From Thermoplasmata archaeon (GTDB lineage: Archaea; Thermoplasmatota; Thermoplasmata; Lutacidiplasmatales; UBA184): a DNA stretch of 64,000 nucleotides. The stretch's first letter is position 1, and each line of letters starts with the position of its first letter. Made by a program: the position numbers and the translations under genes. Location: NCBI GenBank assembly GCA_035507575.1, contig DATJNY010000019.1, positions 17,681 to 81,680 on the forward strand, given 5' to 3'. Of this stretch, positions 7,846-59,359 are shown in pieces. The notes below the pieces were generated by a model. That model worked only from the letters and a program-made list of their open reading frames with translations, was not told where the DNA came from and made no database searches.

Positions 7846-9347
7846 TCACGACGGCTCGGCGTCCGGGAACGTCCGGCCCGGCACGGGCGGGACGACGGGC
7901 CCGGGCAGACCGGGCGCCGGCAGGCGGGGTTCGGCGAGTCCGGTAAGCCCCGGCGCAGTCGGCCGGCTGCCGCGGGCGTGGGGGATCGGCTCGAGGCTAT
8001 CGAGCGCGTCCTCGAACGCGGCGAGCCCGCGCTCCAGGAGCTCGTCCTCGATGGTGAGCGGCGCCATGAACCGCAGCGCCTGGTCCCAGGCGCCGGCGGT
8101 GTGCATCAGCACCCCCCGGGCGAACAGCGCCGAGCGCATCGCCTTCGCGCGATCGCCCCACGGCGCGCGCGAGGCCGCGTCCCGGATGAACTCGACCCCG
8201 ATCATGAACCCCTTTCCCCGGACGTCGCCGATCGCGGGATGCGCCGACGCCATGCCGCGGAACCGCTCGACGAGCGCCGCGCCCCGATGGCGCGTCCGTT
8301 CCAGGAGGTCGCCCTCCCGGAGCACCTTCAGGACCTCGGTCCCGACGGCGAGGGCGAGCGGGTTGCCGCGATACGTTCCGATGTGGAACCCGCGCGGGAG
8401 CTCCTTCACGAGATCGGATCGGTAGGCGACCATCGAGACCGGGATCCCGCCCCCGATCGTCTTCGCGATGCAGAGCAGGTCCGGCGTCACCCCGGCGTGC
8501 TCGACCCCCCACATCCGGCCGGTCCGGCCGAGTCCCGTCTGGACCTCGTCCGCGATCAGGAGGATGCTGTGGCGGTCGCAGAACTCCCGGAGCGCCGGCA
8601 GGAAGTCGTCCGGGGGGACGACGTACCCCCCCTCGCCGAGGATCGGCTCGACGAGCACCGCGGAGACGGCGTCGATCCCCGACGCGGGATCGCTCACGAG
8701 GTGCTCCAGGTACGCGATCGTGCCGGCCGCCCCCTCCTCCGCCCCGAGAACGGGCCGGTAGGGGTCCGGGAACGGCACGCGCACGACACTCCCCCCGCCG
8801 AACGCGGACGTGGCGTGGTACCGTCGGGCGCTCGTCAGCCCCACGACGCCGCCGTGGACGCCGTGGTAGGCGCCCGAGAACGCCACCGTTCCGTGCTTCC
8901 CCTGGGCGAAGTCGGCGAGCGACACGGCGGTCTCGACCGCATCGCCGCCGGTGACGGTGAACAGGACCCGCGCGTGGTGGCGCAGGGAGCCGGGCAGCGC
9001 GTCCTGGAGCTCCTTGAGGAATGCGATCCGGACCTCGGTCGGGAGCTCGAGCGCGTGCCAAATCCGCTCCGATTGGGCCTGCATCGCCGCGACGAGGCGG
9101 GGATGGCGATGACCGAGATTGAGGACCGAGATGCCGGCGACCCAGTCGAGGTACCGGTTCCCGTCGACATCCTCGATCGTCGAGCCCTGCGCGCGGGCCG
9201 GCGCCATCGGAAAGTAGTGCGGATAGCCGATCGCGTCGGTCTCCCAGCGCCCCTGCGACTCGAGGAGCCGCCGCGAGTTCGGGCCGGGCGGAGGGACGAC
9301 GATCCGGGGCGCGTCCGGGTAGCTCAACCACGTGGAGCGATCCGTCA
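7846..9347 (-). CDS. Class III (omega) aminotransferase, PLP-dependent
   Basis: AT-III fold motifs are present (GNRYLDW..., DEVQTG, the PLP-lysine region CIAKTIGGG). I prefer the start at GTG 9347 (VTDRSTWLSYPDAPRIV...). The extension to 9618 is Arg-rich and overlaps the divergent amidohydrolase. Confidence 0.8.
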
Positions 9348-9443
9348 CGGCGCCCTCGCCCCGAGCACCGGCGTTCGCCCATATAACGGAGGACGCGGCG
9401 CCGGCCCGGGCAATTTTATCGACCCAAGTCGTCCCGTGCGACG

Positions 9444-10304
9444 ATGGCGGGTGCGAGCGAACCCCGGATCGACACCCACCTGCACCTGACGCGCTGGTGG
9501 CCGGACCTGGCCGGGACCGCCTATCGCGCGGACCTCGAGTACAACTCCGCGGGGCTGCTCGACGAGATGACCGCCGCCGGCATCGACTACGGGCTCGTGA
9601 TCCAGATCCACGAGGCACCGAGCGTCGAGGAAGCGCTCGAGGAGAGCCAGACGCTCGCGGCGGCGAGCGGAGGGCGGCTTCGCCCCGTCGTGACCGTCGA
9701 TCCGACCCGGGGCGAGGGCGCGGTCGCGGAAGCGCTCGCGCTCTGGGAGTCGGACCCCGCCATCGCCGGGGTCAAGCTGTTCCCGGGCTACCTGCCGTTC
9801 TACCCGCACGACCCTCGGGTCGACCCGATCTACGAGTTCGCGGGACGGCGCCGGCTCCCCGTCCTGATCCACCAAGGGGACACGCTCGACCGGAAGGGTC
9901 GGATCAAATTCGCCCGCCCGATCGAAGTGGACGAGGTCGCGGTCCGCTACCCGGACGTCCGCTTCGTGCTCTGCCACTTCGGCAACCCGTGGATCGACGA
10001 AGCGGCGGAACTCGTGTACAAGAACGAGAACGTCTACGCCGATACCTCGGGGCTGCTCGCGCATCCGTCCGCCCCCTACTTCGACCGGATGGTGGAGGAG
10101 TGCCGGGCGCGCATCGGACGCGCGATCCTGTCGATCGGCGCCGCCGACCGGATCCTGTACGGCTCGGACTGGCCGCTCGAGGAGCTGTGCCTCGCGGTCG
10201 ATCTCGTCGCTCGTCTCGATCTCCCGGCGGAGGACCGGGCGAAGATCCTCGGCGGGAACGCGGCCCGCCTGTTCGGCTTCCCGCGCCGGTCCGGGTCGTC
10301 ATAA
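9444..10304 (+). CDS. Amidohydrolase-2 family metal-dependent hydrolase (TIM barrel)
   Basis: N-terminal IDTHLHL metal-binding motif and a later HxH/D pattern (VLCHFGNPWIDEAAEL, YGSDWP). Confidence 0.8.
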   Translation: MAGASEPRIDTHLHLTRWWPDLAGTAYRADLEYNSAGLLDEMTAAGIDYGLVIQIHEAPSVEEALEESQTLAAASGGRLRPVVTVDPTRGEGAVAEALALWESDPAIAGVKLFPGYLPFYPHDPRVDPIYEFAGRRRLPVLIHQGDTLDRKGRIKFARPIEVDEVAVRYPDVRFVLCHFGNPWIDEAAELVYKNENVYADTSGLLAHPSAPYFDRMVEECRARIGRAILSIGAADRILYGSDWPLEELCLAVDLVARLDLPAEDRAKILGGNAARLFGFPRRSGSS

Positions 10305-20917: not shown

Positions 20918-21592
20918 CTACGGCGGGCTCGCGAGGTGCGCCCAGGCCGCGGTGAAGCCGTAGGAGACCGCGGCGATCCCGGCCAACACGACCGCGACGA
21001 GGAACAGCCCGACCAGGATCCGCCAGAGCCACGGGTAGTCCGGCACGTCCTTCGAGGGGAGGGGGGACGCCTTGGCGTTCGTCGGACCGACGATGAACCA
21101 GTCGATGAACAACGTTGCCGGGAACGCCAGGATCGCCACGCCGCCGAAGGCGAGGTACAGGAGGAACGTCTCGAGGGGGTCGAGGGTCAGGCTGAGCTGG
21201 TAGGCACGGGCGCCGTAGTAGATGATCCCGGATCCCGAGACGGCCGCGACGATGCCGACCAGGTGGGTCGGCAGGCCCTTCCAGACCATCACGCCGAAGC
21301 CGATGAGGACCAGCGCGAGCAGGAACAACGGGTCGAAGAAGAACAGGTCGTACGAGCCGAACTGCGGGGGGATCGGCCAGGTGATCTCGCCCCAGAGGGC
21401 GATGGCGCCGATCGCCACTCCGAGGAGGGCGAGGAATCCGGCGCCGCCTTGGAGGTGGCTCGTCGCCCGCTCGTGGTCCTGCCGGCGGTATTCGTACCAC
21501 ACGCAGAAGGCCGTGTAGAAGATCACGACAGTCACGAGGATCATCAGGTCCAGGATCAGGGTCAGGTCGTCGACGAACACCATTTTTCTCAC
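20918..21592 (-). CDS. Integral membrane protein (about 6 TM), DUF981-like
   Basis: Hydrophobic periodicity throughout. Two ATG candidates exist (21592 and 21583). Confidence 0.6.
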   Translation of the reverse strand: MRKMVFVDDLTLILDLMILVTVVIFYTAFCVWYEYRRQDHERATSHLQGGAGFLALLGVAIGAIALWGEITWPIPPQFGSYDLFFFDPLFLLALVLIGFGVMVWKGLPTHLVGIVAAVSGSGIIYYGARAYQLSLTLDPLETFLLYLAFGGVAILAFPATLFIDWFIVGPTNAKASPLPSKDVPDYPWLWRILVGLFLVAVVLAGIAAVSYGFTAAWAHLASPP

Positions 21593-21695
21593 TCCGTTGC
21601 TGCGGCTTCCGCCGCCTTAGTCGCTCGACCGAGGACGGGGGGATGAACCTCCCGTCAGGTACAGTTGACGGAGCTCGACCTCGACGCGCGGCGGA

Positions 21696-21715
21696 GGGAG
21701 GAGTGCTCCCGGCGG
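21696..21715. repeat. Direct repeat (att-like), gggaggagtgctcccggcgg; this is the distal partial copy of the tRNA 3' end
   Basis: A 20/20 nt match to 27760..27779 in the same orientation. The repeat covers the last 12 nt of the tRNA plus 8 nt of its 3' flank. Confidence 0.8.
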
Positions 21716-22587
21716 TTTGGGGACGGCGGCCGGGTGAAAGACCGGGGAAGGCGCGAGCCCAAGTGTCTCGGACTGTCCGAGTCGCGGCCCCCCGCCGAGA
21801 TCCCAGGCGAGTGTGGACGTGATTGTTTTGGCGCCACGTCTCCGCGAGCTCGGCGGAGGGAAGTCAGACGAAGGGACCGAGGATCGGCTCGCGAAACTTA
21901 ACCGGGAATCGGTCGATGCTCATCGGAGACGGTGTTCGTTCGAGGGGAGATAGCCATCGCCGTGGGGATGGTCATAGCTCGTTCTGTAGAGATGATTTCG
22001 TCTGTAGCCCCAAATGCCGGATCGGGAATCTTCGAACACAGTGAGCGCGAGTTAGACAAAACGCACGGGAACGTCATCCGGGCCACGCTGCCCGCCCTAG
22101 AGAATCGGCCAGCAAATCCAGACGACGCGCAGGCGATCTCTCGCGTCGATCCGATGCTCGACCTTGTCCACGCCAGCGCAGTGGGGGTCATCTTCCAACA
22201 TGTCATTATGGCACCGGCCGAAGTCGGTTCCTCTCTCCACAGCGGGAGGGTGCTTGAGGCGTCCGGTCCAACACTAGGTGGGGTCCGCGGTCGGCGCGGG
22301 ACCCGCGTTCACGACGCCCGAGCAAGCGCTTCGCGCTCAAAACGACGACGGAACGGACGCCTGGGGTCCGAATCGGACCGTTGCGGGCTCCCCTCGCCCG
22401 CTCCGCTCGCGGGTCCCCTCGCGTTTATGGCCATTCCTGCCGGTAACTCCACGTGCCTTGTCCACCCGAAGCGCCCGAGCGGGAACGCGAGGAGACTGAC
22501 AAGCTCCCACTCGCGTTCGACCTGCACCGGCAATCCGCTGACCGTGTCCGAACCGTGCGGAGTCTTCGAAAGGTGGTAGCACTCCTG

Positions 22588-23079
22588 ATGGGTCTCGTGA
22601 TTGCCCTCCTACTCTCGTTCGTGGCCATCGGAGTAGCACAGGGAGTTTTGGGGTTTCAGTGGGTGGTACTCGTGGTTGTCCTATCTTGCCTCTCCTTCCT
22701 GATCGGGGAGTTCACTCTCGTCATGTGGAAAACCAACCAAGGGGCTGTGGGAGTCGCAATTCTGACTGATGGCTTGGAGTTCGCATGGGCTTCCGGGAAG
22801 ACGGAGGTTCTCCCTTGGAACGGTATCTTTCGAGGGTTCACCTTGTTTGACGACAGCGGAGTGGATCTGATTCGCGCTCACAGTCCCAATCTCTGGGAAC
22901 TGCGGCGGTGGAATCGACCGATCACTTGCCTGTCCAATGATGCGTTCGAGGCGATCATACGCGCCGCCTCGAACCGTGGGGTTGTGGTCCATGAACTCAA
23001 ACTGAGGGCCGGCCTGTTCAGATGGACCCCATCCCGAGCCATCCGATTCTCTTCGCCCGGACCAGCCCCACCGGCGTGA
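22588..23079 (+). CDS. Membrane protein with two N-terminal TM helices plus a bacterial-PH (DUF304/YdbS-like) domain
   Basis: A TM hairpin (LVIALLLSFVAIGV... WVVLVVVLSCLSFLIG) is followed by a soluble domain. It is a paralog of the 28012..28683 protein (shared AIL(W)DGxxE..., DAFxxxR motifs). The start is taken at the internal Met preceding the TM helix. Confidence 0.55.
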   Translation: MGLVIALLLSFVAIGVAQGVLGFQWVVLVVVLSCLSFLIGEFTLVMWKTNQGAVGVAILTDGLEFAWASGKTEVLPWNGIFRGFTLFDDSGVDLIRAHSPNLWELRRWNRPITCLSNDAFEAIIRAASNRGVVVHELKLRAGLFRWTPSRAIRFSSPGPAPPA

Positions 23080-23377
23080 CTGCAACGCGGGTCCCTCCCG
23101 CGGCACAGCGGATTGCATCCCCATCTTTCCACAAGAAGAACCCCGATGAATACCTTCGAAGCTTTGCTATGATTCCGCTCCGCGACTGCCGATTCAGCGA
23201 CGCTTAACTAGCGAGAGGCACGTCCCCCTTCGAATCCCAACACAGCATATGTTTGCGCACGAGGAGTGCTCAGTCCTAGTCGGACCGGGTACTCTCGTGG
23301 ACCGGTGCGACACGTGCGGTCCCAGGGCGGGGTTGCGTTCGATCGTTGTCGTGCCTCGCTCGCCAGCCGAGTTGAGG

Positions 23378-25381
23378 ATGGAGAGGAGGACATCGGAGTC
23401 CTCTTCACCCTCGGCGGCAGGTCCGACCGAATCGAGTGGAATTGGGTTAAGGCGCAGTCGTAAACGACATCGATCGACACTGTTTCCGATTCTTGTCGCC
23501 CTAGTTATGGTTCTCGGCGGTCTCCTTTACCAAGCTTCCTCTGCCCTGGAACACTTCGAACCATCGGTGCCAAGTGCCGTCCCGGAAGACACTCCGACGC
23601 TTAGTGTTGGTCAGGCGAACCTGGGGGCCGCTCCAATCGGATCCGGTTCGATTCCCGCTTCGACCGCCGCCAGTCGACCTCCTGCTCAGAACATGACCGC
23701 GCGCGACAATTATTGTGAGTACGACTATAGCTATCTCTGTCACGTCTACGTCGGAGATGACTACTCCGGCGAATCTACCACGGTCACGTCTGTCCAGTTC
23801 ACCATGACCATCCCTAACGGGACCCCCGTTGGGTTCGGTGATGAATACTATCTCGAGTTGATGTCAATCTGGGACCAAAAAGATTCCTACGATCAGATAG
23901 GTGTCGCCGACGCTCAAGGGGGCGATTATCCCGGTAACCCTTCTTCGTACTACGGAAGTTGGACAGTATTCTACTCTGCGGGCGAGCACTGCTTTAACGG
24001 AACGCCCGTGTGGAATCCTATCGCGACATCGCTGACACCCGATGACCAATACACGTTCCAAATGTCAGCTCAATCCAGCGGTTACGTGGACTTCGCCGTG
24101 TACTATGGGGCATCGACATCTTCGCTCGATTGGTCGACCTCGGTCGATACCGGTGCGACTTACTTCTACGAGTCCTCCGCGGCACCGAGCTGTTGGGGGG
24201 GATCAGACGAGGGTTTCACGGACTACGAAGAGATGTTGAGTGTTGGGGGAACTGCGCAGCCAGAATGGAACTTCTTCTTCGACAAAAACGAGGCCAACGG
24301 CGTGTCTGTCACCACCTGGAGCACGGTCGCGCCTGACTGCTCGTGGACCGGCGCCTCGCCTCCCGGATATAAACAGTGCATGTCATTGGGCCTGCCCGCG
24401 GTCTGGCCCAATCTAATGGCCTACTCTTCGAACTCGGGGAGCGTTGTCTCGATTTGGAATGAGTGGTTCGTGAACAACCCTGCTCCCACAGTCTGTGTCC
24501 CAAACGAGGGATGGTGTCAGGTTACGATAGCGCGTGGCTCTGACACGGTGCTTTCCGGGACTGTTACTGATGCTTCCCCCTGCAGTCCGGGACCGGGCGG
24601 TGAGTATTCCGCGTTGTGCTCGACCGACATCGACGAGTTCGAGATCATTCAGTTCCCGACGGCACCCACGACTGCCGCGGACTGTTTCGGTTGGGGAGAC
24701 GGTGAGGACTGCTTGTGCCCCACGTCATCGAGCGGCTGGACATGTAGTTTCACCGGGAGCCAGATTGAAAATCCTTCGACGTACCCTCCTCAAAGCGATG
24801 ACGTGGTTCCTGTCTCATACAGTCTCAAGATTAGCGTTCCGTCCTCTGCAGCTTGCGCTGAGAACCTGATTCGGTTGAACGTCACGGACGGAAGTGAACC
24901 CGGGGGATATGCTTGGGGCACCTTCGATTTTGATGTTTACGTCACGGGGTGTAGCGGCGGGGGCGGATGCGTCGCGTCGGGGACGCCGATACTGACGCCG
25001 GAGGGATACCGGCCGGTGCAGGATCTGACCGCTGGGGAGGAAATTGAGGAGTACGACTTCCTTACTCAGAGCCTGACTCGCGGAGCTTTCGTCTCAGGGA
25101 ACTCAACTGGAGTTTCGGAGCTGGTGGACATCAACCATGGCCGGCTCTTGCTGACTCCAACCGAGCAACCAATCTACATCGAGAACGAGACCTTCGTCGG
25201 ATGGCTGCACGATCCCCAAAATCTTACAGTCGGCGACAAGATTTTTGACCCAGTGAATGGCGGCTGGATACCGGTGACGAGCGTCGTCCTTGTTGATCAA
25301 AAGGCCACGGTCTACGATGTGGTAACGAGTGGTTTCAATAATTTCGTCGCTAACGGAGTGTTGCTGGACATCAAGGGCTAG
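23378..25381 (+). CDS. Membrane-anchored extracellular Ser/Thr/Cys-rich glycoprotein with a C-terminal Hint (hedgehog/intein-like) domain
   Basis: N-terminal signal-anchor (LFPILVALVMVLGGLLY), many N-X-S/T sequons and many Cys. The last 137 aa begin at Cys 24968 (GGGGCVASGTPILTPEGY...VYDVVTSGFNNFVANGVLL) and match the Hint fold pattern. The central beta-rich region may be thermopsin/eqolisin-like, but that is unconfirmed. Confidence 0.65.
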   Translation: MERRTSESSSPSAAGPTESSGIGLRRSRKRHRSTLFPILVALVMVLGGLLYQASSALEHFEPSVPSAVPEDTPTLSVGQANLGAAPIGSGSIPASTAASRPPAQNMTARDNYCEYDYSYLCHVYVGDDYSGESTTVTSVQFTMTIPNGTPVGFGDEYYLELMSIWDQKDSYDQIGVADAQGGDYPGNPSSYYGSWTVFYSAGEHCFNGTPVWNPIATSLTPDDQYTFQMSAQSSGYVDFAVYYGASTSSLDWSTSVDTGATYFYESSAAPSCWGGSDEGFTDYEEMLSVGGTAQPEWNFFFDKNEANGVSVTTWSTVAPDCSWTGASPPGYKQCMSLGLPAVWPNLMAYSSNSGSVVSIWNEWFVNNPAPTVCVPNEGWCQVTIARGSDTVLSGTVTDASPCSPGPGGEYSALCSTDIDEFEIIQFPTAPTTAADCFGWGDGEDCLCPTSSSGWTCSFTGSQIENPSTYPPQSDDVVPVSYSLKISVPSSAACAENLIRLNVTDGSEPGGYAWGTFDFDVYVTGCSGGGGCVASGTPILTPEGYRPVQDLTAGEEIEEYDFLTQSLTRGAFVSGNSTGVSELVDINHGRLLLTPTEQPIYIENETFVGWLHDPQNLTVGDKIFDPVNGGWIPVTSVVLVDQKATVYDVVTSGFNNFVANGVLLDIKG

Positions 25382-25630
25382 AGGCAGGTCGCGTTTTCAC
25401 CTCAAACCTACCATCTTAAGGCGAGTTGGCGACGAGGGTCTGACGCGTTGGGCGCTTAGGTAAAAATGAATCGCCTTCCGGCAGGCCCAGCAAGGCTGAA
25501 TCTTCGATAGACCTAGCGACACGCCAGACATGCGATGGTTACCTCACGCTTGGCAGACCCCGCGCCGAAGCCTATCCATTCATCTCAACCGTCGTCGCGA
25601 GTGATTAGTCGGGGTGAAGCCGACTAGAGG

Positions 25631-27088
25631 CTATCCCCCCGGAATATCTCGTCCTACCGGAGGACTCGCTCCGTCTATGCGACCACGTCGCCACTGAAGG
25701 AGAACCGCCACCCCCGCGATCACCACGCCCGTCGAGATTCCAGGAATCAGAACCAGTTCCAGATACCAAGAGGAAGGAGCTGACTCAGCTCCACTTCCAG
25801 GAAGACCACCCGCGATCACGCTCACGGTGTTCGCATTGAAATCGGGGACGTAGAGGTTCCCGTTCGAGGGGTCGAATGCAGGAGCCAGAGGACTGGAAAG
25901 GACCGAGATTGTCGAAGTCACAGTGTTGGTGTCCCCTGAGATTACGCTCACGGTACCCGAGCTTGAGTTGTCGTTCGAGATGTAGATGTTCCCGTTATCA
26001 GGGTCGTAGACGGGGGACTGCGGGAGCGTCCCTACCGTTACTACTGCGACAACTGAGTTGTTAGACCCAGAGATGACGGTAACGGTACCGCTGGCGAACC
26101 CCCCCGACTGGGACGCTACGTACAGGTCTCCATTGGAGGGATCATAGGTCGGGATACCCGGCGCGGTAGCTCCAAGCGGAATCGTCGCAATGACGGTGTT
26201 CGTCGCCCCAGAGATTACGCTCAAGTGGTTGGTCTGTCCCGAGGTTTCTGCAACCGCCGGAACATAAAGATCGCCATCCCCGCTGTCGTAGGCCGGGGTA
26301 TCGGGAGACCCGCCCACCGGAACTGTGGCGATGATCGTGTTCGATGTCGCCGAGATCACGCTGACGTCATCGTCGTCCATATTCGGCACGTAGAGGTCGC
26401 TGTTGGCGGCGTCATAGGTCGGAGTATCTGGGAAGGCGCCGACGGCGATGGTTGAGATCACCGTGTTCGATGATCCAGAGATCACGCTCAAGTGACCGTC
26501 CTCCTGCGGGGTAACGGCACTCACGGGAACATACAGGTCTTCGTTCCTGCTGACGTAGGTGGGTAGTAGAGGGTATCCACCAACCGGAATCGTGCCCGTG
26601 ACAAGTTCTGTTGTGCCGGAGACGACCGTGACGTTCTCCGAAACCGATAGGGGGGAGATTGCGTACAGATCACCGTTGCCGCCATCGTAAACGACTCCCC
26701 CGGGCGGCCGAAGCAGCGAGATTGTGGCGACAACAGTGTCCGTCGAGCCAGAAATCACGCTGAGGCGCATGGCCCCTACTGTAGGAACGTACACGTTCCC
26801 GTTCGCCCTGTCAAAGACAGGGGCCTCTGGATTAGCTCCCACCGTGACATTCGCGATTACGGTGTTGACACTCGTCGACTCAGAGACGTCCGATTCCATC
26901 GCCAACTTCCGAAAATCTGCGGCATGCCCTGGGGCGGTGTCGACTTGGCGCTGAGGTTGAAGGGGCGCAAGTGGCAGCTGGGCATCCGAGCCCACTCTCT
27001 GTACGTTGAATAGAGGCATGCCCCATGGAACAAGGCCGGCCAAGCATAGTATCGCGGCAACTACGGCGACCGGCAAGAACCGAGTCAT
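25631..27088 (-). CDS. YVTN-family beta-propeller repeat surface protein with signal peptide and C-terminal TM anchor
   Basis: About ten 40-residue repeats, each containing LYV(P/A) ... VSVISG..N.V..TI.VG. There is an N-terminal signal (MTRFLPVAVVAAILCLAG) and a C-terminal TM (GVVIAGVAVLL) with a basic tail. Confidence 0.75.
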   Translation of the reverse strand: MTRFLPVAVVAAILCLAGLVPWGMPLFNVQRVGSDAQLPLAPLQPQRQVDTAPGHAADFRKLAMESDVSESTSVNTVIANVTVGANPEAPVFDRANGNVYVPTVGAMRLSVISGSTDTVVATISLLRPPGGVVYDGGNGDLYAISPLSVSENVTVVSGTTELVTGTIPVGGYPLLPTYVSRNEDLYVPVSAVTPQEDGHLSVISGSSNTVISTIAVGAFPDTPTYDAANSDLYVPNMDDDDVSVISATSNTIIATVPVGGSPDTPAYDSGDGDLYVPAVAETSGQTNHLSVISGATNTVIATIPLGATAPGIPTYDPSNGDLYVASQSGGFASGTVTVISGSNNSVVAVVTVGTLPQSPVYDPDNGNIYISNDNSSSGTVSVISGDTNTVTSTISVLSSPLAPAFDPSNGNLYVPDFNANTVSVIAGGLPGSGAESAPSSWYLELVLIPGISTGVVIAGVAVLLQWRRGRIDGASPPVGRDIPGG

Positions 27089-27759
27089 GCGCGCGTTTAG
27101 GAAGAGCATAGAGCCACTTATCAACCATGAGTACCCGCCACATGCACCGTGCCAAAAAACCTGTGTTATGACCCGCGTCTATCGACAGCCGGACCGGCCG
27201 CTTCCGGCAGGAACCGTCATTTTCGCGGAGGGGTCCGCAAGTCCTGTCCTAATCATGAACCACCGTCGAAGGAGGTCTCGCAGCTAGGTCCCCTCTTGGA
27301 CCGGTTTCAATCGATGCTGGGCTAAGAGTGGAGTCGGTTCGGAAGTTCGATCCGGCACACTCGTGCGTATGCTTGTTCGGCGGTACGGGTACCATCGCGC
27401 GAAGGTCGTAGGCACGCGTCTTGAAGATCCCAGTCCCGACGCGTCAGCCCCTCACTTTCAGAGCGGTGAGGGCCATTCCGATTCGCCGCTCACTCTGGTA
27501 GTTGCTCCCCGCGTCCGGGGGCGGCGAGCAACTGGGCAGATGTGACCTGGTCTCGGCCGGAAACGGTAAGCACGAGGGCCTCTCCACGAACCGCCTCGAC
27601 TCTCGGCTCTGTCCCCGCGGAGTGATGAACCACGGACTTTGACACGGCGGACTCGATAGCACCTTGTGCGCTGTACTGCGCGCCGAGGAACAGCCAGACC
27701 GTGGGACCAGGAATCAAACATGGGCTGAATCTCACGAGATCGGCCCGTCGGGGCTGGAC

Positions 27760-27779
27760 GGGAGGAGTGCTCCCGGCGG
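27760..27779. repeat. Direct repeat (att-like), the proximal copy overlapping the tRNA 3' end
   Basis: Identical 20-mer to 21696..21715. Confidence 0.8.
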
Positions 27780-27867
27780 GATTCGAACCCACGTTGGAGG
27801 GTTTCCCCGGCCCCGTTCGGGGGGCCACGAAGGCCCTCTATCCTTGACCGGACTAGACTACGGGAGC
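27768..27867 (-). tRNA. tRNA gene with a predicted 25-nt intron in the anticodon loop; identity uncertain (hand fold suggests anticodon UUC, Glu); CCA not encoded
   Basis: Acceptor stem GCUCCCG/CGGGAGC, U8-A9, D-arm AGUCCGGUCAA loop and T-arm GUGGG-UUCGAAU-CCCGC are all recognisable. A 100-nt span instead of about 75 implies an intron. A BHB-like fold (CCUU/GGGG helix flanked by 3-nt bulges) gives a spliced loop of CCUUCGA. Confidence 0.8.
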
Positions 27868-28011
27868 ACCGACCGAGCGAGGCGCGGACTCCCTTGAAAG
27901 TTCCCCCAGTCGCGGGGCGCGGCCCGGCCCCCCGGCGAGGGGAGTTCCGCGCCCCATCCCCGATTACCTTCGAAGTCTACGGGAAGTTCAGGGGGAGGAC
28001 GGTTACCCCCG

Positions 28012-42049: not shown

Positions 42050-42781
42050 CTACCGTTTCGGGCTGGGCGACCAGACGCCCGAGGTCGCCCGATGGGCGAG
42101 GGCTGGGAAATACTCAGGTCGGCGCTCGCCGGTGATCGCATAGATGGCCTTCTCGGCGATCTTGCAGGCGTTGTCCCCGACCCGCTCCAGGTGGCGGCCG
42201 GCCAGAAGAAAGCGGCCGAGACGTTCGGTGGAGGGTCCGCCCTTTTGCAAAAGCTCGAAGACCCGGTTCTGCAGTTGGTCGTACAGCTCATCGACATCGT
42301 CGTCCATGGCGAAGATGGCCCGCGCTTCATCGGCGTCCTCTTTGAGGAACGCCCGCACGGATCGCTGGACCATCAGGCGGGACTGCTCGTCCATCTTTCG
42401 CAACAGCTCGCTGGGGGTTTGGTCGGAGGTGTCGGGCGAGCTCGTCAGGTTCTTCGCGAGGTCGTAGCCGAGCCGCCCGACGCGGTCGACGCAGTTCGCG
42501 ATCTTGAGCACGGCGCCGATCGTCCGGAGATCCGGCCCTTCAGGCTGGAGGATCGCGATCAGGCGGATCGCCTCGGTCTCGATGGCGATGTCGAAGCGGT
42601 CGAGGGGCGAATCGCGGTCGGTCACGCTCTTCGCGAGGGCCGCGTCGCCGGTGATCAGCGCCCGGGTCCCGTCGGCGACCATGCCGACGGCGAGTTCGCT
42701 CATCGCGCCGACATGGGCTTTCAGGACCACGATCGGGTCGTCGGGGGGGTTCGGTTTCGGAGGTTCGGGGGTCGCGTTCAT
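42050..42781 (-). CDS. phoU: PhoU-family phosphate transport system regulator
   Basis: Start at ATG 42781 (MNATPEPP...), overlapping the pstB stop. Two PhoU repeats with conserved D/E residues are present (ETEAIRLIA..., DDVDELYDQL..., ERVGDNACKIAE). Confidence 0.8.
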   Translation of the reverse strand: MNATPEPPKPNPPDDPIVVLKAHVGAMSELAVGMVADGTRALITGDAALAKSVTDRDSPLDRFDIAIETEAIRLIAILQPEGPDLRTIGAVLKIANCVDRVGRLGYDLAKNLTSSPDTSDQTPSELLRKMDEQSRLMVQRSVRAFLKEDADEARAIFAMDDDVDELYDQLQNRVFELLQKGGPSTERLGRFLLAGRHLERVGDNACKIAEKAIYAITGERRPEYFPALAHRATSGVWSPSPKR

Positions 42782-43551
42782 GAGAACCGTCCAGTGATGA
42801 ACTCCGCCGTGAGCGGGTTCCGGGGCCGCTCGAGGACCTCGGCGGTCGGCCCGACCTCGATGAGGTGGCCGGTGTGGAGAACGGCGATGCGGTCGGAGAC
42901 CCGCGCCGCCTGGCTGACGTTGTGCGTGACGAGGACGAGCACGTAGTCCTCCTTGAGCCGTTGCATCGTCGCCTCGACGCGCTGCGTCGCCGCGGGATCG
43001 AGCGCCGACGTCGGCTCGTCCAGCAGCAGGACCCGGGGCTGGGTCGCGAGCGCGCGGGCGATGCACAGGCGCTGCTGTTGTCCTCCCGAGAGCGAGAGCG
43101 CGGGACGGTCCAGGTCATCCTTGACCTCGTCCCACAGGCCGGAGCGGCGGAGCCCCTCCTCGACCTGCCGCTCGATCTCACGGATCTCCTCGCCGACCAG
43201 GCGGAGGCCAAACGCCGCGTTCTCGAAGATCGACGTCGGGAAGACGGTCGGGCGCTGGAAGACCATCCCGATGCGGCGCCGGACCATCACCGGGTTGACG
43301 CGAGGATCGTAGATGTTCTGGCCGAGGTAGAGGATCGCCCCCTCCACCTTCAGACCGGGCGTGAGTTCCACCATGCGGTTCAGGCTGCGCACGAACGTGG
43401 TCTTCCCGCAGCCGGACGGGCCGACGACCGCGGTGAGGCTCGACGGCCCAAAGTCGAGGGAGAGGTCGTCGATGAGCTTCTTCTGCTTCGTGCGCACGGT
43501 CAGGTGCTGCACCGACACGACGGCGCTCCCGTCGTTCGCGGTCGCGTTCAC
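42778..43551 (-). CDS. pstB: Phosphate ABC transporter ATP-binding protein
   Basis: Start at GTG 43551. Walker A GPSGCGKTT, signature LSGGQQQRL, Walker [12 protein letters not shown] and H-loop VTHN are present. The 828-aa containing ORF is an artefact. Confidence 0.9.
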   Translation of the reverse strand: MNATANDGSAVVSVQHLTVRTKQKKLIDDLSLDFGPSSLTAVVGPSGCGKTTFVRSLNRMVELTPGLKVEGAILYLGQNIYDPRVNPVMVRRRIGMVFQRPTVFPTSIFENAAFGLRLVGEEIREIERQVEEGLRRSGLWDEVKDDLDRPALSLSGGQQQRLCIARALATQPRVLLLDEPTSALDPAATQRVEATMQRLKEDYVLVLVTHNVSQAARVSDRIAVLHTGHLIEVGPTAEVLERPRNPLTAEFITGRFS

Positions 43552-44462
43552 TGGTAGAGTCCCTCCAATCGCTTCTGGTATCGGGCCGAGATGACGCGCA
43601 CGAGGATGTTGAGGGCGACGACGACGACCATCAAGAGGAGCGCGGCCTGGAACGCGAGCGAGAGGCTCGGCGATCCCGCGGGCTGGGAGAAGTTCTCCCA
43701 GATCGTCCCGGTCAGGAACGTGACCGGGGAATAGATCGTGGGCGGGAAGATCACCGACTGGGTCGTCGTGAGGACGATCGGGGCCGTTTCGCCGACACCG
43801 ATGGCGAGCGCGAGGAAGACCCCGTTCAGGATCTGGGGGAAGGCGATCGGCGCGCCGACCCGGAGCACGTATTGGTACGGCCGGGCCCCCGAGCCGTAGG
43901 CGGCCTCCCGGATCGGGCGGGGGATCGACGAATAGGCGAGATCGGAGATCCGGAAGATGTAGGGGGTCATGAAGAACGCCAGCGTGACCGACCCCGCGAT
44001 GAACGAAAGCCCCCAGCCGAACGTGATGACGAAGAGGAAGTAGCCGAAGTACCCAAGGACGACCGACGGCGTTCCGACGAGCATGTTCGCCGCCATCCGG
44101 ACCCAGCCGGCGGCCCGCTCGGGCAGGAACTCGGCGGTCGCGACCCCGCCGAAGAGGCCGAGCAGCACCGCGAGGGCGATCGCGAACAGCATGATCGCGG
44201 CGGTCGTCTCGATCGGAACACCGAGCGCGTCCGGGTCGTAGGGGTTCGTGCTCGTGAGCACGGTCCAGGTGAACGTCGGAAGCGCCTGCGACGCGATGTA
44301 GTAGACGAGGTCGAGGATCGGGATGATCGCGACAAGGAAGAGCAGCGGCAGCACCCAGCCGATGGCCTTGTCGAAGCCGAGTCGCCAGCGCGTGCGGAAC
44401 GACCGGTCGAAGAGCAGCTCCTCGGCGGTCTCGGCCCGGAGGTGGTTCACCGCGCTCGCCAT
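43548..44462 (-). CDS. pstA: Phosphate ABC transporter permease
   Basis: 6 TM, with the EAA-like loop region (EAAYGSGARPYQ). The 4-nt start/stop overlap with pstB indicates operon coupling. Confidence 0.85.
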   Translation of the reverse strand: MASAVNHLRAETAEELLFDRSFRTRWRLGFDKAIGWVLPLLFLVAIIPILDLVYYIASQALPTFTWTVLTSTNPYDPDALGVPIETTAAIMLFAIALAVLLGLFGGVATAEFLPERAAGWVRMAANMLVGTPSVVLGYFGYFLFVITFGWGLSFIAGSVTLAFFMTPYIFRISDLAYSSIPRPIREAAYGSGARPYQYVLRVGAPIAFPQILNGVFLALAIGVGETAPIVLTTTQSVIFPPTIYSPVTFLTGTIWENFSQPAGSPSLSLAFQAALLLMVVVVALNILVRVISARYQKRLEGLYQ

Positions 44463-44468
44463 CGACCC

Positions 44469-45413
44469 TCACAACCCCGGGACTTCGTAGGTGACGATGC
44501 GGGCGACGAGCCGGCGGCCGATGATGTTGACCGCGAGCGAGATCGCGAGGAGCACGAGCGCCATCTCCGACAGCGCGGCGAGCCACTGGGTGTTGCCGAA
44601 GGCAGAGTCCAGCGAGAGGAACATCTCCGCGGCCATCGTGCCGGTCGATCCGTAGACGTTGGTGGGGTACGAGGCGACGACGTTCAGCACCATCGCGATC
44701 GCAACGGTCTCCCCGAACGCCCGGCCGAAACCGAGAAAGGCGGCGCTGAGGATCCCGCGGCTCCCATACGGGATCGCCACGTGGCGGACCGTCTCCCAGC
44801 GGGTCGCCCCGAGGCCGAGGCCGGCTTCCCAGAGGTCCCGGGGGACGCTCCGGAGCGCGTCCCGGATCAGGAGGGTCGTGATCGGGAGCGCCATCAGCGT
44901 GAGGATGAAGACCCCGACGGGCAGGCCGAGCCCATCCGCGCGGGGCGCGAGCCCACCGAACCCCGGGATGAACCCGATGTGGGCGTACAACGCGGGATTG
45001 ATCACGCTCCCGAAGAACGGGGCGACGAGCAGGTACCCCCAGATCCCGTAGACGATGCTCGGGATCCCGGCGAGGAGGTCGACGAACGGGTCGAGCCACC
45101 GGGTGATCCATCCCGGCAGGTACGTGGTCGAAGCGATCGCGATGCCGAGACCGATCGCCATGGCGAAGAAGAGCGCCGGGAGGGCGGTCAGGAACGATCC
45201 GGCGATGAACACCGCGATCCCCCACTGCGAGGGCGGATCCCAGATGCTCCCCCAAAAGCCCCAACCGAAATTCGTGAGCTTGCTCGAGATGAGCAGCTCG
45301 ACGACGATCCCCACGAGGATCGCCATCGGGATGAGCGCCGGGACGAACGGGACGATCCGTCCGATCGTCGCGCCGTAGGCCCGGTGTCGCGGAGCGGTCG
45401 GGGTTGCGTTCAT
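44469..45413 (-). CDS. pstC: Phosphate ABC transporter permease
   Basis: 6 TM, with the EAA loop (EAGLGLGATRWETVRHV). Confidence 0.85.
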   Translation of the reverse strand: MNATPTAPRHRAYGATIGRIVPFVPALIPMAILVGIVVELLISSKLTNFGWGFWGSIWDPPSQWGIAVFIAGSFLTALPALFFAMAIGLGIAIASTTYLPGWITRWLDPFVDLLAGIPSIVYGIWGYLLVAPFFGSVINPALYAHIGFIPGFGGLAPRADGLGLPVGVFILTLMALPITTLLIRDALRSVPRDLWEAGLGLGATRWETVRHVAIPYGSRGILSAAFLGFGRAFGETVAIAMVLNVVASYPTNVYGSTGTMAAEMFLSLDSAFGNTQWLAALSEMALVLLAISLAVNIIGRRLVARIVTYEVPGL

Positions 45414-45505
45414 GCTGGGGGAAGAAGGGAAGGAAGGGGTTCCCGGTCCGCGGACGCTACCGGGGCCGAGGGGTCACGCACGATACTCCCGGAACTTCGC
45501 CCGCC

Positions 45506-46804
45506 TCAGCTGATGCCCGAGACGCTCGCCAGCTCCACATTGTCGTAACCGATGACCTCGGGGGTCAGGGGCACGAAGTTGACCCCATTGATCCACGCCG
45601 AGGCCGACCCCGCGGAGTTGTAGTTCCCGTACGTCAGGGCCCAGTGCATGAACGCGACCGTGGCCGCGAGCGCGGCGGCCGTCACGACCGTGCCACCGGG
45701 CAGGGTCTTGATCAGCGCGTACTCGAGGTTGACGATCGGGTAGGCGTCCACGCCCGCCGCGGCGTTCGAGCCGCCGCCACCGTGCACGAGGGTGACCGCG
45801 CCCGCGTAGCTGCCGCCGAGGATCAGGCTGACCGCGAGTCCGTAGGTCGCGAAGTCGAGGCGGGTCAGACCCAGGTTCGCGTCGTTCGAGATCGTGGTGG
45901 TCGTGGGCAGGATGTAGTCGTCCGCCGCCGCTGCGTAGGTCCCGTTCGCGATCGTCGCGTTGTTCCCGACGGCCGCATACTCGAGTCCGGCCGCCGCGGC
46001 GCTCGCTTCGTAGCTGATCCCAATGTACGCGATCGAGCCGACCTGGCCCTGCGCGGTCGAGACCATGCCCGAGTTACCGGTGCCGGTCAGGACGTTCGTG
46101 CCGGTGAAGCCCGATAGGCCGCTCGTCGAAACCGGGTACGGGAACGCCGCATCGGACATGTAGCAAAGCGACGTGAACAGGAACGTATCCCCGCTCGAGT
46201 CGGATCGCTTGACCGGGTAGATCGTCTGGGCCGACATCGCGCTGAGCTCGCCCGCGACCGTCGACGACTGAGCCGCCAGGATCTCCGGGTTGTTCCACGT
46301 TGTGATCGATCCGCTGTAGATCCCCGCGAGGATCGAGCCGTTCAGGTTCAGGTGCACGGCGTTGAGCGGCGCCGGCAGGTTGTAGTAGATCAACTGCGCG
46401 GAGATCGCGACGGGGAAGTTGATCAGGTTCGTGGTGCTCGCGTTCGTCAGGTAGCCGTCCGAGGCCCCGATATTGACGAGACCCAGTTCGGCGCTGCTTT
46501 GGCCCGTACCACTGCCCGTGGACGCCGCGCTAAGGACGACGCCCGAGGCCGTGTAGTTCGGGAACCAGTAGTTCTTGAAGAGCGGGTAGAGCAGGCTCGA
46601 GCCCGTCTCCGTCAAGTTGATCGTGCTCGAGCTCGTGCTCGAGTTCGTGGACTTCCCGAGGAAGTATCCCCCGGCGATGCCCACGATCAAGAGGACGATC
46701 GCGATCGCGACCGCAACGCCCACCGACATGCCGCCGGAGCGGCGCTTCATGGGCGTCGAGAGTTGTTCGGTCTGTGTCGTTCCACCCGTGTTCTGCGCAC
46801 TCAT
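45506..46804 (-). CDS. pstS: Phosphate ABC transporter substrate-binding protein, N-terminal membrane anchor
   Basis: TM anchor (VGVAVAIAIVLLIVGIAGGYFL) and PstS motifs (TGSSLLYPL, ASTGSGTGQ, GASDGYL). It is first in the pstSCAB-phoU operon. Confidence 0.85.
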   Translation of the reverse strand: MSAQNTGGTTQTEQLSTPMKRRSGGMSVGVAVAIAIVLLIVGIAGGYFLGKSTNSSTSSSTINLTETGSSLLYPLFKNYWFPNYTASGVVLSAASTGSGTGQSSAELGLVNIGASDGYLTNASTTNLINFPVAISAQLIYYNLPAPLNAVHLNLNGSILAGIYSGSITTWNNPEILAAQSSTVAGELSAMSAQTIYPVKRSDSSGDTFLFTSLCYMSDAAFPYPVSTSGLSGFTGTNVLTGTGNSGMVSTAQGQVGSIAYIGISYEASAAAAGLEYAAVGNNATIANGTYAAAADDYILPTTTTISNDANLGLTRLDFATYGLAVSLILGGSYAGAVTLVHGGGGSNAAAGVDAYPIVNLEYALIKTLPGGTVVTAAALAATVAFMHWALTYGNYNSAGSASAWINGVNFVPLTPEVIGYDNVELASVSGIS

Positions 46805-52017: not shown

Positions 52018-52617
52018 CTACGCCGTCTTCTCCGAGGCGAGCGGCGCAGGCGGCGCGGCGAGCTTCTGCTGCCAGAGGTGGTAGACCGCGGCGCTGCGTC
52101 CGACCAGGAGGCCCGTCGAGAAACCCCACAGCGCGTCGACCGAGAACAGGAGCGCGAGGGCGACGGTCGAGACGCCGAGGAACATCGACGCCGTCGGGAA
52201 GGAGAACGGCGACTCGTTCAGGATCGCGGTCTCGATGCCCGTCCGCACGAAGAACAGGACGACGTAGATCACCGGCAGGAGCGGGCTCAGCCGGTAGCTC
52301 CACTGCGACTCCCCGTCGGCCTGGTAGAGGTGGACGTTCCGGGCCGTGTACCGGTAGGCGACCACAAATCCGACCGCGACGAGCGCCGCGTCGGCGGCGA
52401 ACGAGGCGAACGTGAGCGTCGCGAGGCTCGTGCCGACCGCCGTGACGCCGATCGTGGCGAGCGTGATCCCGTAGAGCAGCACGTACAGGATCGGGATCGC
52501 GACGAGCCGCCCCGTCGTGACGGGAGCGCCGTGCGTCAACCGCCACGAACGGCGAAGGATGATCAGCCCGAGGATGACGACGAAGAGATACCCCGCCACC
52601 TCCGACTGCGAGATCAT
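52018..52617 (-). CDS. Integral membrane protein (about 6 TM), function unknown
   Basis: Strong hydrophobic periodicity, and stop-start spacing consistent with neighbouring genes. Confidence 0.55.
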   Translation of the reverse strand: MISQSEVAGYLFVVILGLIILRRSWRLTHGAPVTTGRLVAIPILYVLLYGITLATIGVTAVGTSLATLTFASFAADAALVAVGFVVAYRYTARNVHLYQADGESQWSYRLSPLLPVIYVVLFFVRTGIETAILNESPFSFPTASMFLGVSTVALALLFSVDALWGFSTGLLVGRSAAVYHLWQQKLAAPPAPLASEKTA

Positions 52618-52674
52618 GAGAGTCCTCGGACGCCGCTCCGATCGCGACGGACGCCCCGTTCGGTCGGGGGTATT

Positions 52675-53979
52675 TCAGCCCACCCGTTCCCACCGCTCGA
52701 GCTTCTGAACGGTGCCGAGCGTCGAGCCCCGCTGGATCTCCTCGCGGACCCGGTTCTCGTGTTCGAGGACGTCGAGCGCCCGGTTCGCGATCTCTTGCGC
52801 CCGCTCGCGGGGGACGACGACGACGCCCGAGAGATCCCCGACGATCCAATCCCCCGGCCGGACGCGCTGCCCGCCGACGGTCACCTCGACGCCGATCTCG
52901 CCGTGCCCCTTTGGCTCGCCGGCGTCGGAACTGACGTGGCGGCTGAACACCGGGAAGCCGAGCTCGAGGATCGCGTCGAGGTCGCGGGCGGCCCCGTCGA
53001 TGACGACCGCCGCGACGCCCCGGCCGTGGGCGCTCCAGCTCGCGAGCTCGCCCCAGAGGCCGGTCGGTCCCCCGCCGGCGTCGACCACGATGACGTCCCC
53101 CGAGCCGGCCCGGTCGATCGCCTCGACGGGCTTCGCCCAATCGCCGTCGCGGGTCAGCACCGTGACCGCGGGGCCGGCGACGCGCACGGTCCGGTCCTTC
53201 AAGTGCGGGACGATCCCGTGCATCGCGCCCTTCCGCTGGAGGGCGTCCGTGACGTTCGGGCTCGAGACCCGGAGGAACGCCGCCCGGATCTCGTCCCCGC
53301 CGTACCGGCGGAAATGCTCCGTGGCGACCCCCCGCCGGGTCGCGATCGCCTCGCGGATCCGCCGGGTCGCCTCCGCGATCTGCGGGCTCTTCGTGATCGC
53401 GCCGCCGACGATCAGGATCTGGGCTCCGGCTTCCACCGCTTCCGCGACGGTCTCCGAGTTCAGCCCGCCCGCCACCGCGACCGGGACCGGGGACGCCTTC
53501 GCGATCTCGGCGAGCACGGCGAACGGCGTCTTCGCCTGCATCTGCATGTCGATCCCGACGTGCCAGCAGACCGCCGCCGCCCCGAGTTCGGCGGCGCGCC
53601 GGGCCCGGGCGACCGGATCGGGGACCCCAAGGAGATCGACGACGATCTCCGCCCCGTAGAGCTCGCCGCCGCGAACGCCGTCGGCGATCGTATCGTCGTC
53701 CGCCGCCCCGAGGATCGTGACGAGGTCGGCGCCCGCCTTCGCCGCGATCTCGACCTCGAAGGCACCGGTGTCCATCACCTTCATGTCGGCGACGATCCGC
53801 TTGTCCGGGAACGCCTTCTTCAACTCCCGCACCGCGTCGAGCCCCTCGGACTTGATCAGGGGGGTCCCGGCTTCGACCCAGTCCGCGCCGCCCTCCACGG
53901 CCTCCCGGGCCGCGGGGAGCGCGCGGGAGAGGTTTTCGAAGTCGAGGGCGACCTGCAGGACCGGCCGCTCGAGGCGCAT
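52675..53979 (-). CDS. Bifunctional 3-hexulose-6-phosphate synthase (OMPDC-fold) / RraA-like (MenG/RraA family) fusion protein
   Basis: N-terminal HPS motifs (VLQVALDF, DWVEAGTPLI, IVADMKVMD, AGADLVT), then an RraA-like domain (GDVIVVDAGGG, AAVVIDGAARD). Start is ATG 53979. Confidence 0.75.
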   Translation of the reverse strand: MRLERPVLQVALDFENLSRALPAAREAVEGGADWVEAGTPLIKSEGLDAVRELKKAFPDKRIVADMKVMDTGAFEVEIAAKAGADLVTILGAADDDTIADGVRGGELYGAEIVVDLLGVPDPVARARRAAELGAAAVCWHVGIDMQMQAKTPFAVLAEIAKASPVPVAVAGGLNSETVAEAVEAGAQILIVGGAITKSPQIAEATRRIREAIATRRGVATEHFRRYGGDEIRAAFLRVSSPNVTDALQRKGAMHGIVPHLKDRTVRVAGPAVTVLTRDGDWAKPVEAIDRAGSGDVIVVDAGGGPTGLWGELASWSAHGRGVAAVVIDGAARDLDAILELGFPVFSRHVSSDAGEPKGHGEIGVEVTVGGQRVRPGDWIVGDLSGVVVVPRERAQEIANRALDVLEHENRVREEIQRGSTLGTVQKLERWERVG

Positions 53980-54009
53980 GCCGCGCCGAGCGGGCCGGCC
54001 GTAATAACC

Positions 54010-54924
54010 ATGCCACACGGCGGCTCACCGAACGGGATGCCGGCGCCCGCCACGGGAGGGGTTCGGCTGATCCACGGCGACGCGCGCCGCCTCGCGGGGG
54101 TCGATGACGCGTCGGTCCACCTCGTCGTCACCTCCCCGCCGTACCCGATGATCCCTCAGTGGGATGGCCTGTTCCGGACGCTCGGCGCGACGCGCTACGC
54201 CGGCATGCTCCGCGTCCTCTCCGACGCCTGGCGGGCCTGCTACCGCGCACTCGTCCCGGGCGGGATCCTGGCGGTGAACATCGGGGATGCCCTGCGCACC
54301 CGTGCGGGAGAGTTCCGTCTCTGGCCGAACGCCGCCCACACGCTCGCCGACGCGGAACGGATCGGGTTCCGGCCGCTGCCGTACGTGCTATGGAAGAAGC
54401 CGACCAACAAGCCGAACGCCTTCCTCGGCTCGGGATTCGTCCCGCCGAACGCCTACGTCACGCTCGATTGCGAGTACGTGCTCCTGTTCCGGAAGGGCGC
54501 CCTGCGGCGCCTGCCGCCCCACGATCCGGCGCGCGCGGCGAGCCGGTTCTCCCGCGCGGAGCGCGACCGGTGGTTCAGCCAGATCTGGACGGACGTGCGC
54601 GGGGTGCGACAGGCGACGTCCCGAGGCCGCAGCGCCGCGTTCCCGCCGGAGATCCCGGAGCGACTCATCCGGATGTTCTCGCTCGTGGGGGAGACGGTGC
54701 TCGACCCGTTCGCCGGAACGGGCACCACACTCGCCGCCGCCGCGCGCTGGGGCCGGAACGCGATCGGGGTCGAATGGGACCTCCCGACGTTCCGCGCGCT
54801 CGCGTCGGCGGGCCGCGCCCGGGGCTGGACGGTGATCACTCCGCGGGCGGGAGCGGCGGACGGGCCCGGTGCGCCACCTCGTCGTCGACGGCCTGCTTCA
54901 GGTACTGGAGCGCGGACGGGCTGA
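54010..54924 (+). CDS. DNA methyltransferase (N6-adenine/N4-cytosine, beta-class) with no restriction endonuclease recognised beside it
   Basis: Catalytic motif IV SPPY (HLVVTSPPYP) precedes the SAM-binding motif I (DPFAGTGTT). Start is ATG 54010; the upstream portion of ORF 52078.. is antisense junk. Confidence 0.75.
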   Translation: MPHGGSPNGMPAPATGGVRLIHGDARRLAGVDDASVHLVVTSPPYPMIPQWDGLFRTLGATRYAGMLRVLSDAWRACYRALVPGGILAVNIGDALRTRAGEFRLWPNAAHTLADAERIGFRPLPYVLWKKPTNKPNAFLGSGFVPPNAYVTLDCEYVLLFRKGALRRLPPHDPARAASRFSRAERDRWFSQIWTDVRGVRQATSRGRSAAFPPEIPERLIRMFSLVGETVLDPFAGTGTTLAAAARWGRNAIGVEWDLPTFRALASAGRARGWTVITPRAGAADGPGAPPRRRRPASGTGARTG

Positions 54925-58203: not shown

Positions 58204-58204
58204 C

Positions 58205-59344: not shown

Positions 59345-59359
59345 CGTCCCGGTCCCGGG

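Follow-up and report, generated by a model that had tools for sequence, protein, structure and literature searches.

Within a 64-kb stretch of DNA from a Thermoplasmata archaeon (the window; contig DATJNY010000019.1), a segment of low GC content begins close to a gene for a DUF981 membrane protein and ends at a gene for tRNA-Glu. This segment is probably a small genomic island that entered the 3' end of the tRNA gene by site-specific insertion of the tyrosine-recombinase type, and whose integrase is now absent in cis. A perfect repeat with the geometry of attachment (att) sites brackets DNA of foreign composition, the tRNA gene beside it is intact, no recombinase was found in cis, and the content of the site varies among relatives.

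In the proposed mechanism, the incoming DNA would have carried an attP site matching an attB site made up of the last 12 nt of tRNA-Glu and 8 nt of its trailer. Recombination of attP with attB by a tyrosine-type integrase would have rebuilt an intact tRNA at attR (27760-27779) and left the displaced copy of the core as attL (21696-21715), next to DUF981, the original downstream neighbor. The integrase may subsequently have been lost by deletion; alternatively, it may never have been encoded in the island, or it may be supplied in trans. The cargo, three envelope-associated genes, would come from a pool of DNA with ~58-64% GC, and it likely serves to alter the cell surface. The features of the region are as follows (ORF, open reading frame; TM, transmembrane; GC3, GC content at codon position 3).

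20918..21592, minus strand: DUF981 membrane protein, host flank gene (Pfam DUF981, E=9e-30); likely start ATG at 21583
21696..21715: attL-like copy of the 20-mer, displaced tRNA 3' end (12 nt) and trailer (8 nt); exact match with sharp edges
21716..22452: left gene-free end, 0.74 kb, GC 0.64
22062..22354: conserved non-coding patch, 71% identical by blastn, with no indels, to 649-941 of metagenomic contig L040
22453..23079, plus strand: p208, a small membrane protein whose N-terminal TM helical hairpin is followed by a beta-rich domain of ~110 aa; GC3 0.65
23249..25381, plus strand: Hint710, Ser/Thr-rich anchored protein; alternative start M44 at 23378
25631..27124, minus strand: YVTN497, YVTN beta-propeller surface protein (TIGR02276, E=4.7e-34, in 4 stretches); GC3 0.66
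27125..27759: right gene-free end, between the start of YVTN497 and attR; GC 0.62
27760..27779: attR-like copy of the 20-mer, formed by the terminal 12 nt of the tRNA (27768-27779) and 8 nt of trailer
27768..27867, minus strand: intron-containing tRNA of Glu(UUC) type, the target gene (Rfam RF00005, 46.7 bits, full model)

The repeat pair, the target tRNA and the composition of the island

An earlier note on this DNA had described an island bounded by a perfect 20-bp direct repeat. The 20-mer, GGGAGGAGTGCTCCCGGCGG, does occur as two exact copies (21696-21715 and 27760-27779), and no others are found in the window on either strand even when up to four mismatches are allowed. Exact direct repeats of at least 20 nt number two in the window, the second pair lying inside paralogous ABC-ATPase genes; composition-preserving block shuffles predict 0.03 per window. 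Outside the 20-mer the flanks of the two copies match at chance level (11/40 and 15/40 identical positions for the two sides). Such a sharp stop of identity at the edges fits an att core and does not fit a duplication.

The two copies enclose 6,044 bp. Rfam coordinates for the tRNA bear out the earlier assignment of the right copy to the last 12 nt of the gene plus 8 nt of flank. The left copy lies 104 bp from the start of the DUF981 ORF (21592), or 113 bp from the likelier ATG (21583), and synteny in two related genomes (loci L004 and L014) identifies DUF981 as a conserved neighbor of the tRNA. Direct repeats that serve as attL and attR, often short, are standard at tRNA 3' ends for archaeal integrated elements (PMC6563490, PMC7253208). 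With a sharp and exact repeat, an intact tRNA and foreign content exactly between the copies, the geometry of integration into a tRNA 3' end that was first read from the letters holds up well.

The composition changes with the repeats. GC content is 0.590 in the island versus 0.705 and 0.694 in the flanks, and GC3 is 0.65-0.66 in the three island genes versus 0.85-0.95 in native genes, which confirms the earlier observation that the enclosed DNA is less rich in GC. Native secreted proteins encoded in the window have GC3 values of 0.88-0.94, so the low GC3 is not simply a trait of envelope genes here. The pieces of cargo each match a different contig of ~59-64% GC (L030, L038 and L040), and this spread over separate contigs reads as the mosaic pattern typical of mobile DNA.

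The target tRNA was missed by ARAGORN at default settings because it carries a 25-nt intron. The intron occupies the canonical 37/38 position (27803-27827 in the window), and the anticodon loop, CCUUCG-intron-A, matures to CCUUCGA, as shown by alignment with the intronless orthologue of L004 that ARAGORN reports as Glu-ttc. A cloverleaf is the fold obtained for the pre-tRNA (z = -3.6). Run with -i, ARAGORN produced numerous spurious tRNAs with long introns and a questionable Arg(tcg); the Rfam match and the L004 alignment were relied on instead. Orthologous tRNAs are present in both L004 (5955-6029) and L014 (1715-1812).

Several properties of this tRNA are unusual or variable. Position 33 is C, not the near-universal U, in all three species (the anticodon loop lies around 27829-27833 in the window). 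The introns at 37/38 differ among them: 25 nt in the window, 23 nt in L014 and none in L004. The predicted splice region departs from the textbook bulge-helix-bulge. Strains of the same species are polymorphic at 27819, where the intron is 24 or 25 nt long, and in the 5' leader of the tRNA (27915-27939), where 5 substitutions or indels occur; apart from these, the strains do not differ over the ~17 kb around the tRNA.

Beyond the window, the 20-mer matches four contigs in Joint Genome Institute (JGI) metagenomes, none with attB or attP context, and it has no match in viral contigs. Three of the four are unrelated. The other, L019, is from an unrelated metagenomic organism and encodes at 1126-1208 a canonical tRNA-Glu(UUC) that lacks an intron and has the same last 12 nt and 8-nt trailer (CTCCTCCC), and thus the whole 20-mer. 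This 2.4-kb contig has no integrase, and its match was judged coincidental.

The site in relatives and the age of the insertion

The protein encoded by the DUF981 flank gene was scanned against species-representative genomes, which yielded 16 loci in metagenome-assembled genomes (MAGs) of uncultured Thermoplasmata, at 55-78% protein identity. The adjacency of tRNA and DUF981 is kept in two of the 16, L004 and L014. In L014 a vapBC toxin-antitoxin pair (1918-2545) lies between the two genes, and YVTN is absent. In L004 the interval contains a YVTN gene (61% aa identity) that adjoins the tRNA in the same orientation as in the window, a p208-like gene (36% aa identity) in the opposite orientation, and a truncated IS66 transposase (8874-9950, minus strand; profile positions 284-384 of 387 match). 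GC3 of the YVTN and p208-like genes is 0.65-0.68 there, versus 0.95-0.97 in the flanks. L004 and the window island share no non-coding similarity. In a third locus, L003, p149, the right-flank gene, lies close to DUF981 and the tRNA is missing. From these gene contents, the interval between tRNA-Glu and DUF981 is a hotspot with species-specific content of mobile type.

Within the species itself, nine contigs from at least six samples are 99.5-100% identical, and all of them either have the island or end close to it. Wherever a contig spans a copy of the repeat, that copy is intact, and this includes each contig that covers the attL-like copy at 21696-21715. The island has zero single-nucleotide polymorphisms (SNPs) while the left flank has 0.3-0.7%; this was considered as a sign of youth and rejected, since the SNP-free tract extends beyond the island, across the right flank and up to 38.7 kb or farther.

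An empty site in related genomes had been proposed as a check. The junctions expected on the tRNA strand (window minus) are GGGTTCGAATCCCGCCGGGAGCACTCCTCCCTCCGCCGCGCGTCGAGG for the empty attB and CCGTCCCCAAACCGCCGGGAGCACTCCTCCCGTCCAGCCCCG for the circular attP. The same species provided no empty site, and what emerged from the relatives was a variable interval: L014 is without the island but has vapBC at the site, and intergenic DNA is too diverged for attB to be reconstructed.

A number of observations weigh against insertion by a tyrosine-type integrase. No integrase was found in the island or among the window ORFs scanned with Pfam; the remaining ORFs were read by eye only. Among the assemblies examined there is no empty site, circular junction or island-free strain. 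The 20-bp core at the 3' acceptor end excludes the T-loop and is shorter than many archaeal att sites; that of pT26-2, for example, is 51 bp (PMC7253208). In L004, related cargo lies at the same tRNA with no second copy of the tRNA end, and a candidate for a degenerate attL in that genome was not significant. The earlier note had stated that relatives with the same content and no repeat would refute an island, and L004 goes part of the way, with cargo that is related and a repeat that is missing. Finally, the synonymous divergence of YVTN is host-like, which fits long residence over recent import.

This last point can be put in numbers. At four-fold degenerate sites, the identity that the window and L004 retain above saturation amounts to 0.28 in YVTN, 0.18-0.33 in host genes and ~zero in p208. 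The YVTN value falls within the range of host genes, so YVTN diverged in step with the hosts; the p208 genes of the two genomes are probably not orthologous. Related cargo at the same tRNA in L004, taken with the host-like divergence of YVTN, means that the island is not a simple one-off recent import. The repeat gives a different age. If it were older than the split between the two species, the chance of all 28 repeat positions free of constraint by tRNA function remaining unchanged would be ~0.53^28, or ~2e-8, so the repeat is either younger than the split or actively maintained. The last integration or re-integration would accordingly postdate the split. The perfect repeat also argues against decay of an integrase in place by point mutation, and for a gene that was deleted outright or is encoded elsewhere.

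The combination of a perfect repeat with YVTN divergence like that of the hosts is what would be expected of an active non-autonomous cassette, excised and re-integrated in trans by a tyrosine recombinase of the genome or of a helper element, so that attL and attR remain identical while the cassette diverges together with its hosts. This explanation is unlikely, yet several observations are in its favor. No trace of a decayed integrase gene is seen, and decay by point mutation should have hit the repeat too. The conserved non-coding patch of the left end is shared with the element-like contig L040, and a second species, L004, has a related island at the same tRNA. On the other side, no helper integrase is found among the scanned window ORFs, and the examined assemblies offer neither of the junctions that excision would produce. 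Moreover, an identical island in all sampled strains gives no sign of ongoing mobility, and the comparable bacterial elements, cis-mobilizable elements (CIMEs), are defined as products of decay (PMC5704250). Somewhat more doubtful still is the extended form of the idea, in which a lineage of integrase-less, att-bounded cassettes has occupied tRNA-Glu in this clade of Thermoplasmata since before the species split. Repeated excision and re-insertion in trans would explain the perfect att repeats beside host-like YVTN divergence, as well as the lack of any integrase remnant.

The gene-free ends and the cargo

Site-specific insertion with later absence of the integrase leaves the two ends of the island to be accounted for. 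Both had been described as free of convincing ORFs, and this is the case. The left one measures 0.74 kb and not the 0.9 kb first given, because p208 starts at 22453, the longer of its possible starts and the one favored by the family alignment. Gene callers place a 205-aa ORF in the left end (21962-22579, plus strand; GC1/2/3 = 0.65/0.56/0.68). An exhaustive HMMER search returned two homologues that resemble wrong-frame translations, and the ORF looks spurious.

These ends were earlier suggested to be fragments of an SSV-type partitioned integrase or of another recombinase. In a decayed element of this type (type I, 'suicidal'), attP lies within the integrase gene, and the two halves, int(N) and int(C), would have decayed into the gene-free ends. 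Elements of the pT26-2 type likewise have an attB that lies at a tRNA 3' end and reaches a few nt beyond the gene, which agrees with this, as does the lack of convincing genes at both ends. The searches point the other way. Six-frame translations of 21593-22600 and 27100-27900, with stops masked, match no family (Pfam E<=1, PHROGs E<=0.1), the island ORFs contain no integrase or recombinase by Pfam, and Rfam at E<=1 finds the tRNA alone in the two ends. When the island is circularised in silico to mimic attP, the longest ORF across the att core is at most 167 aa from stop to stop and is Arg-rich junk. With no recombinase signal in the ends and no ORF reassembled across the reconstituted attP, the partitioned integrase is unsupported. 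Decay thorough enough to erase all homology is also hard to square with a repeat that is 20/20 identical. An SSV-type origin thus has little probability, although the other part of the earlier claim, that the island lacks an intact integrase, stands.

The conserved part of the left end bears on the same question. Its strongest block is 22305-22354, and L040, the contig that it matches, has ~60% GC and belongs to another organism from the same sample as L038. The mismatches are spread evenly over codon phases (29/29/27); with no codon periodicity, the patch behaves as non-coding DNA, which counts against a decayed integrase. Its pattern of conserved blocks has no exact match in viral contigs. 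The patch was also considered as a structured RNA and rejected: RNAalifold gives 12 compensatory pairs from the two sequences, but single-sequence z values are -0.6 to +0.7 on both strands and there is no Rfam match.

The cargo had been labeled as a bPH membrane protein, a Hint-domain glycoprotein and a YVTN propeller. The YVTN label is secure through TIGR02276. YVTN497 has an N-terminal signal or anchor and a C-terminal TM anchor (TM segments 11-41 and 454-478), its gene contains internal families of DNA repeats, and its homologues number more than 700; one of these, P0020, lies in an ordinary chromosomal context.

The Hint label has weak support from three independent matches below threshold (E about 0.003-0.005). 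Hint710 has a single N-terminal hydrophobic anchor, with a TM-like segment at residues 74-100, and sequons are present. Its C-terminal Hint/intein-like region begins with GGGGC followed by VASGTPILT, with Cys at the boundary, and lacks the terminal His-Asn of inteins. The Pfam matches, Hint_2 at E=0.003 and Intein_splicing at E=0.005, do not reach the gathering cutoffs, and the matches in the Protein Data Bank are to the intein 6rpp and the bacterial intein-like domain 2lwy (E=0.005). Among 5.8e9 proteins, Hint710 has three homologue clusters, itself included.

The bPH label is unsupported, as p208 matches no bPH profile or fold. Nor does it match any Pfam or NCBIfam family or other fold, and its similarity to the native neighbor p223 is not significant. 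The structure predicted by AlphaFold2 has a pLDDT of 82. The family has eight clusters among the same 5.8e9 proteins, and the closest full-length homologue, at 64% identity, is in L038 (8,988 bp, JGI 3300078425), where it comes last in a series of 16 small ORFs that share one orientation. Scans of nine L038 ORFs (6 with PHROGs, 3 with Pfam) gave no significant match; the contig may belong to an unknown archaeal virus or plasmid. In other MAGs (L032-L037) a p208-like gene lies directly 3' of a gene for a giant protein of 2,000-2,300 aa without Pfam domains, and often its start overlaps the stop of the giant protein (e.g., L032 4050-10591; L036 3639-10591). In L036 an IS110 transposase comes next after the p208-like gene. 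This arrangement suggests an accessory role for p208 alongside large surface proteins.

None of the three cargo genes matches a defense family in PADLOC, and the island has no match in phage and plasmid collections (distant blastn, with tblastn of p208 and Hint710 against phages). The contexts of Hint710 and p208 homologues show no integrase, shared synteny or tRNA, the last checked with Rfam in L030 only.

A cargo of surface proteins raises the possibility that the locus is ancestral and fast evolving, with genes of the YVTN and p208 types always present, a low GC3 intrinsic to them, and a 20-mer that arose by coincidence or local duplication. The presence of the island in all strains, the host-like synonymous divergence of YVTN from the L004 copy in the same position and orientation, and a YVTN-like gene upstream of DUF981 in L005 and L009 would all be natural in such a locus. 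However, the gene in L005 and L009 is a different paralogue with native GC3 (0.90) and 27-30% identity, L014 has no YVTN, and the native secreted proteins have the high GC3 of their surroundings. The sharp edges of the repeat oppose duplication, and a chance 20-mer (0.03 per window) that both ends on the tRNA terminus and brackets the shift in composition is very improbable. The ancestral locus is thus a very remote prospect.

An insertion of the transposon or casposon type, with the 20-mer as a target-site duplication, could explain direct repeats that flank the segment, and casposons can insert near tRNA genes, but target-site duplications are usually shorter than 20 bp, the repeat falls on the tRNA end in the manner of att cores, no transposase or Cas1 was found in the island ORFs and six-frame ends, and the island has no terminal inverted repeats (the end-to-end alignment score is at shuffle level, p=0.32); the absence of inverted repeats and transposase effectively refutes it.

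Neighboring regions and related systems

Other parts of the window also show signs of variability. A second, milder tract of low GC covers 31.6-43 kb and has GC3 values of 0.75-0.89. At 31583/31584, four strain contigs of separate samples break off, and from this point GC falls to ~0.62 and a pilus-like cluster starts (PBP_like_2, T2SSE, two T2SSF, a PKD protein and KaiC-like ATPases). A second island that varies among strains probably occupies the region from ~31584 to ~43000; a search for repeats bounding the ~31.6-43 kb tract found none. In L004 (4424-5440) and L014 (162-893), phoU is ~0.5-0.8 kb from tRNA-Glu with one small gene between, whereas in the window phoU/pstACS (42050-46804) is ~14 kb away. 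Thus ~14 kb (27.9-42 kb) was added or rearranged on the 5' side of the tRNA. Farther on, 52078-61920 may be a module resembling those for conjugation or secretion. It contains genes for a HerA/DUF87-AAA_10-type ATPase (55374-57212), a surface protein of 729 aa rich in repeats and several membrane proteins, along with a long ORF that has an N6_N4 DNA methylase domain at its end; Pfam scans of the ten least obvious ORFs gave no integrase.

The island can be compared with several known classes of integrated DNA. CIMEs are defined by attL and attR that are kept while the genes for integration and transfer are gone (PMC5704250). Like the island, these members of the integrative conjugative and mobilizable element (ICE/IME) systems occupy the 3' end of a tRNA or other target gene. 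By its sequence features the island fits the definition and may be called 'CIME-like', that is, att-flanked and integrase-less. CIMEs have been shown in Firmicutes to be decay products of conjugative elements that are mobilised by an arriving ICE (PMC5704250). In contrast, the island is in an archaeal host, has no known helper and displays no visible decay intermediates.

Among archaeal elements, the cryptic integrated elements of Thaumarchaeota (PMC6563490) resemble the island in their size (from 2.6 kb), in short att repeats that are mostly <26 bp and set the boundaries, and in dark-matter cargo. Their sole conserved gene is the integrase (PMC6563490), which the island does not have. Elements of the SSV/pT26-2 type (PMC7253208) also use an attB made of the tRNA 3' end and a few nt, and their integrated copy is likewise without an intact integrase. 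In these elements int(N) and int(C) pseudogenes abut the att sites, and none were found in the island. The att core differs as well: 20 bp without the T-loop in the island versus 51 bp including the T-loop in pT26-2, and the pT26-2-type 'suicidal' elements are known from hyperthermophiles (PMC7253208). Archaeal 'dark matter islands' (PMC4158269) are narrowly distributed clusters of fast-evolving genes, to which the rarity of Hint710 (3 clusters) and p208 (8 clusters) is akin. There they form a descriptive category with no defined boundaries, whereas this island is bounded by exact att-like repeats.

The island provides a cleanly delimited case of tRNA-targeted integration in an uncultured lineage of Thermoplasmata represented by MAGs only. 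It marks the interval between tRNA-Glu and DUF981 as a recombination hotspot with cargo that differs from species to species, and it adds two families of envelope proteins that are very rare, Hint710 and p208; their spread is seemingly tied to mobile DNA. With one exception this is routine annotation. The sole lead to something new is the contrast of a perfect att repeat with the host-like divergence of the cargo, which may point toward archaeal cassettes mobilised in trans. Such a lineage, if it exists, would be an archaeal counterpart of the bacterial cis-mobilizable elements.

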